From Naegleria gruberi (taxonomy: Eukaryota): 1,678 nt of DNA. A program made the position numbers and the translations under genes. The notes below the pieces were generated by a model. That model did not search any database. It was given only the letters and a program-made list of their open reading frames with translations, and had not been told where the DNA came from. The number at the start of each line of letters is the position of its first letter. Positions within the stretch are counted from its first letter, which is position 1. Below, one piece after another: positions 302 through 1,678 of the stretch. Where the stretch lies: NCBI GenBank assembly GCA_000004985.1, contig GG739349.1; one strand, given 5' to 3'.

Positions 302-790
302 ATGTCTGCTAAACTTGAATTAAACTCTGGAAACAAATGGCTTGTTGAATATCAAAAAGGACAACAAGATCTAACCATTAACTCCACAGCCATTCAACAA
401 TCAGTAGTTGTTTACAAATGTGAAAATTCCACATTAGTTGTACGTGGTAAGGTAAATGGTATCACTATTGATAGCTGTTCCAACTTTAACATTATCTTCG
501 AAAGCTCGATCTCCCCTCTTGACGTCATTAACTGCAAGAGAGTTCAAGTGCAAGTAGAAAAGACAACCCCTGCTGTCATCATCAACAAAACTGCTAATAT
601 CAAAGTTTTCTTGAGCAAAGAAAGTTTGCATACTGAGTTTGTTTCATCTCTTTCAAACGAGATGAATGTTTACATCCCTACTCAAGATGGTGAAGACACC
701 ATTGAGTTGCCAATTCCAGAAACACTTACCACCAGAGTTGTAAAAGGAAAGCTTGAAACAGAAGTTGGCAGCAAGGCTGTTGGTGTTTAA
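302..790 (+). CDS. Stand-alone C-CAP (CARP / beta-helix) domain protein. It is homologous to the C-terminal actin-monomer-binding domain of cyclase-associated protein CAP/Srv2. The 162-aa ORF is complete.
   Basis: The product aligns along its full length with my recollection of the Srv2/CAP C-terminal domain. Matches include GNKWLVEYQ vs GNKWFIENYE, the VxGKVNxIxxDxC and SSISxxDVI repeats, and FLSKESLHTEF...NVYIPTQDGEDTIELPIPE vs YLSKESLNTEI...NVNLPIGEDDDYVEFPIPE. The start is ATG-TCT with A at -3 and a 20-nt A-rich leader. In-frame stops at TAA 284-286 and TGA 248-250 preclude an N-terminal extension. Codon usage is yeast-like and no in-frame CTG is present. Confidence 0.85.
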   Translation: MSAKLELNSGNKWLVEYQKGQQDLTINSTAIQQSVVVYKCENSTLVVRGKVNGITIDSCSNFNIIFESSISPLDVINCKRVQVQVEKTTPAVIINKTANIKVFLSKESLHTEFVSSLSNEMNVYIPTQDGEDTIELPIPETLTTRVVKGKLETEVGSKAVGV

Positions 791-809
791 AAAACAGATC
801 CTTACTTCA

Positions 810-830
810 AATAAATTGTAAACAATTGTT
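810..830 (+). promoter_or_regulatory. Intergenic signal cluster. AATAAA (810-815) and TGTA (817-820) form a 3'-end positioning/efficiency-like element. A perfect 10-bp palindrome AACAATTGTT (821-830) overlaps a forkhead-type GTAAACAA (818-825).
   Basis: These motifs are read directly from the sequence. They sit in the 84-bp spacer between the 790 stop and the 875 start. The A-rich stretch at 844-852 could be a poly(A) site or a leader. Confidence 0.3.
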
Positions 831-874
831 CCACCGAATCGACCAAAAAAAATCTCCAAACACTCTCGCCGCGA

Positions 875-1606
875 ATGTCTCAACAACTTGTTCAAATCGA
901 TAGAGAACATCTCAAGAAGCTCTATGCTGAAGAAGAAGCTTTGTTCTTGAAGAATCACCCAAAGTGTCGTGACGCCTTTGAAAGAGCTAAGAACTCTCTT
1001 CTTGATGGTGTACCAATGCACTGGATGAAGAAGTGGACTGGTGGTCATCCATTGTTTGTTAAACAAGCTAAAGGAGGTCACTTTACCGACTTGGATGATG
1101 TTAAATTTATCGATTTTTGCCTTGGTGATACTGGTTCCATGACTGGCCACTCTCCTGATGTTGTCGTTGATTTTGTTTCAAAACAATTAAATAATGGTAT
1201 TACTTATATGTTACCAAACGAAAATGCAATTTGGGTTGGTGATGATTTAAAGAAGCGTTTTGGTCTTCCATACTGGCAAGTTGCTGTTTCTGCAACTGAT
1301 GCCAACAGATTCACTTTACGTATTGCTAGACATATTACCAAACGTCCAAAGATCCTTGTTTTCAACTATTGCTATCACGGAACTGTTGATGAAGCTTTTG
1401 TCACCCTTGCTGATGATGGTGTTACTGCTGAATGTCGTGCTACAAATATTGGTCCACAAACCAATCCAACAAATACCACAAAGGTTGTTGAATTTAATGA
1501 TGTTGAAGCTTTGGAAAGAGCTTTGGCTCCTGGTGATGTTGCTGCTGTTTTGTGTGAACCAGCCATGACAAACATTGGTATTGTTCTCCCACACCAGGAT
1601 TTTTAG
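875..1606 (+). CDS. Aminotransferase segment A. This is the track ORF, which ends at a premature TAG created by the frameshift.
   Basis: The ORF ends ...GIVLPHQDF*. Family consensus predicts V-P-x-x-G-[FY]-L here. The in-frame stop therefore lies exactly where conserved sequence should continue. Confidence 0.8.
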   Translation: MSQQLVQIDREHLKKLYAEEEALFLKNHPKCRDAFERAKNSLLDGVPMHWMKKWTGGHPLFVKQAKGGHFTDLDDVKFIDFCLGDTGSMTGHSPDVVVDFVSKQLNNGITYMLPNENAIWVGDDLKKRFGLPYWQVAVSATDANRFTLRIARHITKRPKILVFNYCYHGTVDEAFVTLADDGVTAECRATNIGPQTNPTNTTKVVEFNDVEALERALAPGDVAAVLCEPAMTNIGIVLPHQDF

Positions 1607-1678
1607 ATAAGCTCCGTGAACTCACTACTAAATATGGTACTCTTTTGATTATCGACGAAACTCATACCATCTCTGCTG
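875..1678 (+). CDS. Class-III PLP-dependent aminotransferase, glutamate-1-semialdehyde 2,1-aminomutase (HemL)-like subfamily. It is 3'-partial and continues beyond the window. The reading frame is interrupted by an apparent 1-nt frameshift near 1590-1597.
   Basis: The translation contains PLFVKQAKGGHFTDLDDVKFIDFCLGDTGSMTGHSPD, which follows the HemL-like pattern P-[IL]-F-x-x-x-[AG]-K-G-x-x-x-x-D-x-D-G-x-x-[YF]-ID and GH. It also contains KILVFNYCYHGTVDE, which matches the IIKFEGCYHG motif, and LCEPAMTNIGIVLP, which matches the EPxxGNxGxIxP motif. After the shift, frame 1 (1597..1678) reads GFLDKLRELTTKYGTLLIIDETHTISA. This matches the conserved PGFLxxLRExxxxxGxLLIxDEV segment that precedes the PLP-lysine region. 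The first ATG after the in-frame stop TAA 812-814 is at 875 (ATG-TCT). Confidence 0.85.
1597..1678 (+). CDS. Aminotransferase segment B. This is the -1 frame continuation and is 3'-partial at the window end.
   Basis: Codons gga ttt tta gat aag ctc cgt gaa ... give GFLDKLRELTTKYGTLLIIDETHTISA, which is strongly family-like. Frame 1 is already open from 1585 and reads S-P-T-P-G-F-L. The lesion therefore lies at about 1589-1596. Confidence 0.75.

Follow-up and report, generated by a model that had tools for sequence, protein, structure and literature searches.

The closest characterised relatives of the protein described here are the glutamate-1-semialdehyde aminomutases (HemL, or GSAM; TIGR00713; PDB 2GSA, 3BS8 and 2E7U), with which it has the class-III fold in common. 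In GSAM, the substrate-binding loop is composed of the residues Ser28-Ser29-Pro30-Val31-Arg32, and Glu406 is located in the active site (PMC7338781). The best solved structure is found outside this family. It is represented by the "probable aminotransferase" 5YKR/5YKT, which matched residues 9-456 with an E-value of 6e-130, compared with about 1e-48 for the HemL proteins. We take the protein of 5YKR to be PA5523 from Pseudomonas aeruginosa. The role of PA5523 "remains to be determined" (PMC7857532), and a literature search on 5YKR gave only an irrelevant match. Spermine-NONOate induces PA5522 together with PA5523. An identification of PA5522 with pauA7 was rejected because pauA7 is listed as PA5508 (PMC6235884), and the argument based on gamma-glutamyl-polyamines was dropped with it.

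Concerning the host, Naegleria gruberi was scored positive for GSA-AT in Table 1 of PMC4870792, where ALAS, GTR, ALAD, PBGD, UROS and UROD are all absent. This species has been reported to be without nearly the whole haem pathway; a literature search on haem auxotrophy in Naegleria found nothing relevant. No paper naming the accessions of the window or of the full-length protein was recovered by literature search, and the aminotransferase listed by Maruyama 2009 is a different one.

We propose that the contig is a redundant fragment bearing the 5' part of a transaminase of the PRK07046 subfamily, acquired by horizontal transfer, related to HemL without being a HemL, and interrupted by an artefactual break. 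We assign to this full account a probability of roughly 0.78.

Layout of the contig and the missing base at 1593/1594

The window analysed (1678 bp) is an entire unplaced contig of the N. gruberi NEG-M assembly, and both of its ORFs were annotated previously (XP_002668080.1 and XP_002668081.1). The initial annotation had placed the sequence in a yeast-like genome; the host is a heterolobosean amoeba, and the premise based on fungi falls with this correction. The following features were recognized:

302..790, plus strand: stand-alone CAP C-terminal (CARP) domain protein (CAP_C) of 162 amino acids, XP_002668080.1 (Pfam PF08603, E-value 5.2e-54)
791..874, plus strand: intergenic spacer of 84 nt, with an A-run shortly 5' of the aminotransferase ATG (sequence inspection)
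875..1591, plus strand: aminotransferase CDS in frame 0, codons 1-239 (MSQQ...GIVLP), identical to residues 1-239 of XP_002679383.1 (Pfam PF00202)
1592..1593, plus strand: "CA" remnant of the Gln240 codon, which is CAA in the aligned DNA of the orthologs from N. fowleri and metagenomes
1594..1677, plus strand: aminotransferase CDS in the -1 frame, codons 241-268 (PGFLDKLRELTTKYGTLLIIDETHTISA), ended by the contig edge and identical to residues 241-268 of XP_002679383.1
1604..1606, plus strand: TAG stop in frame 0, arising from the absent base; end of the annotated 243-aa protein XP_002668081.1

The ATG-initiated ORF beginning at position 875 on the plus strand matches the Pfam family Aminotran_3 (PF00202, E-value 5.8e-18), in agreement with the class-III aminotransferase first proposed for it, and the core motifs quoted in that proposal were all located (KGGHFTDLDDVKFIDF at 1070-1117, GSMTGH at 1133-1150 and NYCYHG at 1364-1381). 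The frame is not continuous from 875 to 1678 as had been assumed: frame 0 stops at the TAG codon 1604-1606, and from position 1594 the homology lies in the -1 frame. An intact full-length copy of 458 amino acids (XP_002679383.1, here P0001; D2V933) is located on a 782,252-bp scaffold of N. gruberi, under the GenBank name "glutamate-1-semialdehyde aminotransferase".

The Gln240 codon lacks its third base, which should stand between 1593 and 1594; the contig ends 85 nt further on. At this junction the window reads CCA CA- CCA GGA, and the orthologous DNA of N. fowleri and of the metagenomes reads CC(A/T) CAA CC(A/T) GGA. The reference protein across the junction is IVLPQPGFLD, and the orthologs and the intact copy are all read in a single frame. 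When the two frames were joined, the score against PF00202 rose from 65.2 bits (frame-0 ORF) to 96.4 bits (cutoff 30.5). All 267 readable codons (239 + 28) equal those of XP_002679383.1, with no further decay. The junction was also sought in metagenomes, both as it stands and with the base restored, and 0 matches were obtained. Because the 267 readable codons are those of the intact copy, the break is probably due to a read-end error or to the redundancy of the contig. An error of this kind, at a read end or in the assembly of a redundant contig, is most likely the origin of the break, rather than a real mutation, and the 243-aa protein XP_002668081.1 (D2W6G6) is most likely an artefactual truncation product of the one-base gap.

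A real second locus is an unlikely but serious alternative. The contig would then be a divergent allele, or a recent segmental duplicate in which CAP_C is accompanied by the 5' portion of the aminotransferase; in both cases the aminotransferase would be a newly frameshifted pseudogene. The records for N. gruberi contain no further CAP_C protein of at least 90% identity, and in neither N. fowleri nor a related Naegleria-like metagenome organism does CAP_C adjoin the aminotransferase. Both observations would be compatible with a second locus or with a chimeric contig. Against this stand the complete agreement of the readable codons with the intact copy, free of other decay, and the nature of the lesion itself: a lone missing base so close to the end of a 1.7-kb contig would be typical of a low-quality read end.

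We give next to no credence to a biological bypass of the frame change, even if two mechanisms would put the frame right on paper, namely a -1 slip of the ribosome after Pro239 or the excision of the 20-nt GT..AG stretch 1578-1597 (sequence inspection). The single-frame reading of the orthologs and of the intact copy argues against both. Programmed -1 frameshifting was rejected since no slippery heptamer of the form X XXY YYZ occurs at 1586-1594, and since the slip yields His where the reference has Gln. The putative intron was rejected because its excision deletes the conserved segment IVLPQP. A length of 20 nt is also far below the normal size of spliceosomal introns.

Family membership and relation to HemL

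From position 875, the contig bears the initial 268 codons of a PLP-dependent transaminase of fold type I, class III, belonging to the bacterial PRK07046 (NF005453) subfamily. The full-length N. gruberi copy scored 644.2 bits against NF005453 ("transaminase"; cutoff 425), over positions 5-452 of the 453 in the profile, and the N. fowleri ortholog scored 653.5 bits. The fragment of 268 amino acids from the window obtained 396.9 bits over profile positions 5-265 and lies under the cutoff only because it is cut off. The motifs DGVPM[HN]WM, DFCLGDTG, SATDANRF and DETHT of the subfamily are all present in the window and are invariant or nearly so in the 9-12 members aligned. The gathering score of PF00202, the family of class-III (fold-type I) PLP aminotransferases, was also passed, with the pyridine-nitrogen Asp261 in the window and the Schiff-base Lys288 in the full-length copy only. 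The Naegleria copy has DGVPM[HN]WM, DFCLGDTG, DETHT, GKxIxxG and FHNMAL in common with NF005453 and 5YKR; it differs from them by its eukaryotic host and, in the window, by the restriction to residues 1-268 with a frame break of one base.

The N-terminal region had been interpreted as an extension of about 45 amino acids. This region is not an addition, as position 5 of the NF005453 profile aligns at residue 6 of the protein and 5YKR aligns from residue 9; it is conserved in the bacterial homologs and in the crystal structure. Relative to HemL, the Naegleria protein is longer by about 28 conserved residues at the N-terminus and contains an insertion of about 10 residues (EGIDVGGIG). A cytosolic localization is a reasonable prediction, since the N-terminus is acidic and carries no additional residues when compared with the bacterial homologs.

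The term "HemL-like" is a fair description, as the HemL models are the next-best matches after NF005453 itself. All of them are nevertheless missed by the full-length copy: 230.5 bits against a cutoff of 527.3 for TIGR00713, 229 against 398 for PRK00062 and 200.5 against 637 for PRK12389. The fragment from the window reached 151.9 bits on HemL. The alignment with the HemL structures and with 5YKR locates the following motifs in the window:

1007..1030, plus strand: DGVPMHWM, residues 44-51, in place of the GSAM loop GGV(N/S)SPVRAF (alignment with two HemL structures and 5YKR)
1289..1300, plus strand: S139-A-T-D, equivalent to the cofactor-contact motif S122-G-T-E of GSAM, where the interface helix begins (alignment; roles from PMC7338781)
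1373..1378, plus strand: Y167-H168, equivalent to Tyr150-His151 of GSAM, a conserved active-site pair where the gating loop begins (alignment; roles from PMC7338781)
1654..1656, plus strand: Asp261 of DETHT, equivalent to Asp245 of GSAM, which contacts the pyridine nitrogen; in the -1 frame segment (alignment; roles from PMC7338781)

The residues kept in common with HemL are the Asp contacting the pyridine nitrogen, the Schiff-base Lys, the Tyr-His pair and the phosphate motif GTLxGN. The Schiff-base Lys288 lies past the contig end; its aligned counterpart is the Lys that was mutated to Ala in 5YKT. In contrast, the two positions corresponding to Ser28 and Ser29 of GSAM are deleted, and Arg32 is replaced by His49 (window 1019-1021). 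The same holds for all family members including 5YKR, where Arg32 corresponds to His or Asn. Glu406 of GSAM aligns to Asn427 or Met428 of FHNMAL according to gap placement, in the part of the full-length copy that lies beyond the window. The protein has retained the PLP machinery (Asp261, Tyr167-His168 and, in the full-length copy, Lys288) and has lost the residues that bind glutamate-1-semialdehyde (Ser28/Ser29, Arg32 and Glu406).

It is very improbable that this protein is a genuine glutamate-1-semialdehyde 2,1-aminomutase acting in the C5 route to 5-aminolevulinate. The name given in GenBank to the full-length copy implies such a function, as does the positive score for GSA-AT in PMC4870792, and the second rank of the HemL models among the family matches points in the same direction. 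These indications are opposed by the failure at every HemL cutoff and by the non-conservation of the four GSAM residues. Moreover, the table of PMC4870792 contains for N. gruberi neither GTR to make glutamate-1-semialdehyde nor ALAD to use 5-aminolevulinate. The earlier view that the protein is not an aminomutase of the haem pathway is upheld by the HemL scores, by the substrate residues and by the haem genes that the published table shows as absent from the host (PMC4870792), and the transaminase of the PRK07046 subfamily would take no part in 5-aminolevulinate synthesis.

Bacterial affinity of the Naegleria gene

The family is overwhelmingly bacterial, and relatives are encoded by at least 597 GTDB species genomes. 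Among the best 120 matches, identities above 70% were obtained only with N. fowleri and two metagenome sequences; the next 116 are bacterial or unnamed, with identities of 59-68%, and no EukProt entries other than those of the Naegleria type occur among these 120. A protein from N. lovaniensis is included in the same 90% cluster as the N. gruberi copy.

In the NJ tree, the Naegleria-type sequences form a clade with a bootstrap value of 96. This clade is grouped at 93 with the sister sequence P0008, a bacterial-looking sequence whose contig was judged bacterial by gene content only; 5YKR and the HemL proteins are localized outside. The deep nodes are weak (bootstrap values of 2-33) and the loose grouping with Bacillales and Clostridiales is found at 23, so that no donor is claimed. 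The bacterial origin suggested in the initial annotation agrees with the composition of the family and with the grouping with P0008, and the Naegleria-type clade falls within an otherwise bacterial family, in an NJ tree with weak deeper nodes. In the comparison of composition with the neighbouring gene, which the initial annotation recommended, the gene is host-like, with a GC content of 0.395 against 0.374 for CAP_C and an RSCU correlation of 0.70.

The N. fowleri ortholog, FDP41_000502, is devoid of introns and is located amid eukaryotic genes on a 1.2-Mb contig; the N. lovaniensis copy is likewise surrounded by eukaryotic genes on a contig of 716 kb. The CAP_C protein of the window matches a predicted protein of N. 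gruberi at 100% identity, and its presence on the same contig links the aminotransferase to a eukaryotic gene. The single Naegleria clade inside an otherwise bacterial family, at 57-68% identity, together with the long nuclear contigs, supports horizontal acquisition. The gene would have entered the Naegleria lineage from bacteria, and its composition would since have become that of the host.

Bacterial contamination of the assembly could also account for an intronless gene whose product is 59-68% identical to proteins of Bacillota, Chloroflexota and Acidobacteriota. We regard this explanation as virtually excluded. On the contig analysed, the gene begins 84 nt downstream of CAP_C, which is specific to eukaryotes, and the presence of the aminotransferase gene on long contigs in three Naegleria species (782 kb, 1.2 Mb and 716 kb) refutes contamination by physical linkage. 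The host-like GC content and codon usage speak against it as well, as does the start context: no Shine-Dalgarno-like sequence was seen on inspection of the 84-nt spacer 791..874, which has the A-run upstream of the start.

Neighbourhoods of the bacterial homologs and putative function

The acquired gene has many bacterial homologs, and their neighbourhoods provide an indication of function. An aldehyde:ferredoxin oxidoreductase (AOR) or an aldehyde dehydrogenase (Aldedh) was found within 4 kb in 35 of the 85 bacterial loci listed as matches, and none in the other 50; these loci include mutually related MAGs and are not independent. AOR is situated directly downstream on the same strand in 14 of the 85 listed loci, and Aldedh is so placed in three. 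An aminobutyraldehyde dehydrogenase adjoins P0008, and glutamate-semialdehyde dehydrogenases are found near other bacterial homologs. The homologs from Bacillales are placed behind sigma-54 PAS activators, which presumably resemble RocR in domain composition. The linkage with aldehyde-oxidising genes is absent in Naegleria.

The recurrence of aldehyde-oxidising enzymes beside the bacterial homologs suggests an aldehyde-forming omega-transaminase. These neighbours make the omega-amine or omega-amino-acid transaminase put forward in the initial annotation the most plausible function. In its probable working, the protein may be likened to the transaminases of the aldehyde-forming pairs of an omega-transaminase and an aldehyde dehydrogenase, namely putrescine aminotransferase PatA with PatD, ornithine aminotransferase RocD with RocA, and GabT with GabD. 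It is not a member of the corresponding sequence families, as shown by its scores of 81 bits against the ornithine aminotransferase model (cutoff 378) and 81 bits against the GABA transaminase model (cutoff 507). The enzyme would catalyse a ping-pong transamination in which a terminal (omega) amine, for example that of a diamine, a polyamine or a basic amino acid, is converted to an aldehyde.

For specialists this is an ordinary case and holds no surprise; its chief value is a correction of annotation. The entry D2W6G6 (XP_002668081.1) is to be read as a truncation artefact. D2V933, which is probably what the haem-pathway table counted as HemL, is a member of PRK07046 and not evidence for a C5 pathway. 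The gene adds a further transfer from bacteria to Naegleria. The neighbourhoods offer a testable hint of function for a family that has a crystal structure and a wide distribution in bacterial species. Beyond this, we advance only tentatively that the genus (N. gruberi, N. fowleri and N. lovaniensis) gained a bacterial omega-amine transaminase of the diamine or polyamine type, which belongs to an uncharacterised family and has been miscounted as "HemL", and, as a separate matter, that the contig may be a real and very recent pseudogenised duplicate. If such a gain took place, Naegleria may possess a specific step of amine catabolism with no obvious counterpart from other eukaryotes among the closest matches, and the enzyme might be of interest for selective targeting of the pathogen N. 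fowleri.

The aminotransferase fragment and its CAP_C neighbour

The window represents an entire unplaced contig of the NEG-M assembly: both of its annotated proteins, identified by exact sequence, are assigned to a contig of exactly 1678 bp. Two open reading frames, separated by 84 nt, are present on one strand:

302-790, + strand: CAP_C protein, 162 aa (PF08603, E 5.2e-54; XP_002668080.1 / D2W6G5)
875-1606, + strand: aminotransferase ORF, 243 aa (Pfam Aminotran_3 PF00202, E 5.8e-18; XP_002668081.1 / D2W6G6, NAEGRDRAFT_54968)

The spacer (791-874) is very short. A-runs are found directly 5' of the CAP_C ATG (280-301) and, in the spacer, about 25 nt 5' of the aminotransferase start codon. CAP_C is preceded by a T-rich tract (~144-163) and by an in-frame TAA, 18 nt 5' of its ATG. 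The 302-790 protein consists throughout of the CAP C-terminal (CARP) domain, without N-terminal CAP or WH2 region. A homolog of equal length (P0122, 75% identity) is encoded at 6572-7060 of L012, a locus from a Naegleria-like metagenome organism, where the next gene is PARG_cat_microb and not the aminotransferase.

The three aminotransferase motifs quoted by the initial annotation are located at 1070-1117, 1133-1150 and 1364-1381, in a genome that is not yeast-like but that of the heterolobosean amoeboflagellate N. gruberi. The gene proposed at 875-1678 is real, but its frame is not continuous: frame 0 terminates at the TAG 1604-1606 and the class-III aminotransferase homology PGFLDKLRELTTKYGTLLIIDETHTISA runs on in the -1 frame up to the window end. 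The Pfam score, 65.2 bits for the ORF alone, reaches 96.4 bits once the two frames are joined, and a database search gives the joined protein ~100% identity with a 458-aa N. gruberi protein. This intact copy (XP_002679383.1 / D2V933), recorded as "glutamate-1-semialdehyde aminotransferase", is carried by a 782,252-bp scaffold; the N. lovaniensis ortholog also has 458 aa and lies on a 716-kb contig. The window ORF is therefore a fragment of an already annotated gene, on a leftover contig. The entry D2W6G6 duplicates the N-terminal half of D2V933, and its C-terminus reads ...IVLPHQDF, where the final four residues (HQDF) are the out-of-frame translation from a one-base gap.

In the DNA alignment, the orthologs display CC(A/T) CAA CC(A/T) GGA where the window has CCA CA- CCA GGA. 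Over codons 1-239 (875-1591) and 241-268 (1594-1677), the window encodes the same residues as the intact reference; the sole loss is a base from the Gln240 codon, 85 nt before the 1.7-kb contig ends. This is most simply explained by a sequencing error at a low-quality read end, the contig being redundant, in which case D2W6G6 would be an artefactual truncation. Less probably, the window is a chimeric contig or derives from a genuine second locus: no second N. gruberi CAP_C protein at ≥90% identity is on record (cluster look-up), and neither in N. fowleri nor in the Naegleria-like metagenome organism is CAP_C seen beside the aminotransferase, but the lone missing base so near the contig end, with the other 267 codons intact, argues for the read-end error. 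Programmed -1 frameshifting was rejected, as there is no slippery site and a slip would yield His where the reference has Gln. Removal of a 20-nt GT..AG "intron" (1578-1597, gtattgttctcccacaccag) would mend the frame but delete the conserved IVLPQP segment, and this stretch was thus judged a coincidence.

Family membership and active site

The full-length copy matches NF005453 (PRK07046, "transaminase"; NCBIfam) with 644.2 bits (cutoff 425) over positions 5-452 of the 453 in the profile; the window fragment alone reaches 396.9 bits. In contrast, the full-length copy falls below the cutoffs of all HemL (glutamate-1-semialdehyde, GSA, aminomutase) models: TIGR00713 (230.5 vs 527.3), PRK00062 (229 vs 398) and PRK12389 (200.5 vs 637). 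The closest solved structure is the "probable aminotransferase" 5YKR/5YKT (presumably P. aeruginosa PA5523; E 6e-130, residues 9-456), followed by HemL structures at about 1e-48. As the profile aligns from residue 6 and 5YKR from residue 9, the acidic stretch supposed to extend the N-terminus belongs to the conserved sequence of the family and is not a eukaryotic addition.

In GSAM, the substrate is contacted by the loop Ser28-Gly39 (including Ser29 and Arg32) and by Glu406, and the active site also comprises Asp245, Lys273, Tyr150 and the Tyr301-Thr305 phosphate loop (PMC7338781). Naegleria, bacterial and 5YKR sequences were aligned with two HemL sequences. Asp261 (= Asp245), Lys288 (= Lys273, aligned with the Lys changed to Ala in 5YKT), Tyr167-His168 and GTLAGN are common to HemL and the Naegleria protein. 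However, the HemL loop GGV(N/S)SPVRAF is replaced by DGV--PMHWM, with two residues deleted and His49 (Asn in several bacteria) in place of Arg32, and Glu406 aligns with Asn or Met. From this alignment, the PLP chemistry is predicted to be intact and the GSA-specific substrate contacts to be missing.

For N. gruberi, Table 1 of PMC4870792 is positive only for GltX, GSA-AT, HemN and FeCH, and blank for ALAS, GTR, ALAD, PBGD, UROS and UROD. The protein behind its GSA-AT entry is most likely the present PRK07046 aminotransferase, scored as HemL. With GTR and ALAD missing, there is no C5 pathway for the aminotransferase to serve. Failure of the HemL models, loss of the GSA contacts and this table all support the non-haem role initially proposed, albeit on a fungal argument that does not apply to an organism that is not a yeast. 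The core of the initial annotation, a HemL-like non-haem transaminase, is thus retained without its organism, ORF continuity and N-terminal extension. The aminotransferase, misnamed as HemL, belongs to a known transaminase subfamily of bacteria, which it represents in a eukaryotic genus, Naegleria.

Origin of the Naegleria gene

Among the best 120 database matches, identity is above 70% only for N. fowleri (89%) and two sequences from metagenomes (90% and 76%). The other 116 are bacterial or unnamed (59-68% identity), the named ones belonging to Bacillales, Clostridiales, Chloroflexota and Acidobacteriota, and relatives at 57-66% identity occur in at least 597 bacterial GTDB species genomes. 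In a neighbour-joining tree (115 sequences, 448 columns, 200 bootstrap replicates), the Naegleria-type clade (bootstrap 96) has as sister (bootstrap 93) P0008, the closest relative of bacterial appearance; 5YKR and the HemL sequences branch outside this group. P0008 derives from a 5.2-kb contig (L011) where its gene is followed by an aminobutyraldehyde dehydrogenase gene; CATTCCCT-type tandem repeats (2660-2709) lie directly 5' of the latter. Since bootstrap values at the deeper nodes are low (2-33), the tree is not taken to indicate a donor phylum.

The composition, compared with the flanking gene as the initial annotation had suggested, is host-like: GC is 0.395 vs 0.374 for CAP_C, and the RSCU values correlate at 0.70 with those of CAP_C but at -0.40 with those of a Chloroflexi homolog. 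Copies in three Naegleria species lie on 0.7-1.2-Mb contigs among eukaryotic genes. CAP_C linkage, these large contigs and the composition exclude bacterial contamination. The nesting in the tree and the bacterial matches support the suggested bacterial origin, and the gene was probably acquired horizontally by Naegleria.

Bacterial gene neighbourhoods and putative function

Flanking ORFs were clustered, and representatives annotated, at 85 bacterial loci among the matches listed, which are phylogenetically non-independent. Among these listed matches, an aldehyde:ferredoxin oxidoreductase (AOR; AFOR_N + AFOR_C) lies within 4 kb at 24 of the 85 loci (directly 3' on the same strand at 14 of the 24), a NAD(P) aldehyde dehydrogenase is found at 12, and either or both at 35, the majority being without such a neighbour. 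The dehydrogenases include the aminobutyraldehyde (NF010000, 668 vs 615 bits) and L-glutamate gamma-semialdehyde (NF002852, 793 vs 648 bits) dehydrogenase subfamilies. Tandem amine-oxidase/CrtI-like flavoproteins are upstream at 13 of the 85 listed loci; in Acidobacteriota and Dormibacterota (L049, L050, L055, L057, L060, L061, L062 and L090, ~700-4000), two of ~530 aa each (Amino_oxidase / CrtI-like) directly precede the aminotransferase gene on its own strand. In six Chloroflexota loci (L016, L021, L028, L034, L042 and L075, ~2400-7100), two AORs flank the aminotransferase in a conserved one-strand order: AOR of ~635 aa, 1.3-1.6-kb interval, PRK07046 aminotransferase, AOR of ~575 aa. This array resembles an as yet uncharacterised operon for amine/aldehyde catabolism. 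A sigma-54 PAS-domain activator precedes the aminotransferase gene in two Bacillales genomes, and PA5523 and PA5522 are co-induced by spermine-NONOate (PMC13024080).

These neighbour-gene associations fit an omega-transaminase forming an aldehyde that is then oxidised. With a probability that we place slightly above one half, the aminotransferase is a putative omega-transaminase that would turn a terminal amine into an aldehyde for subsequent oxidation.
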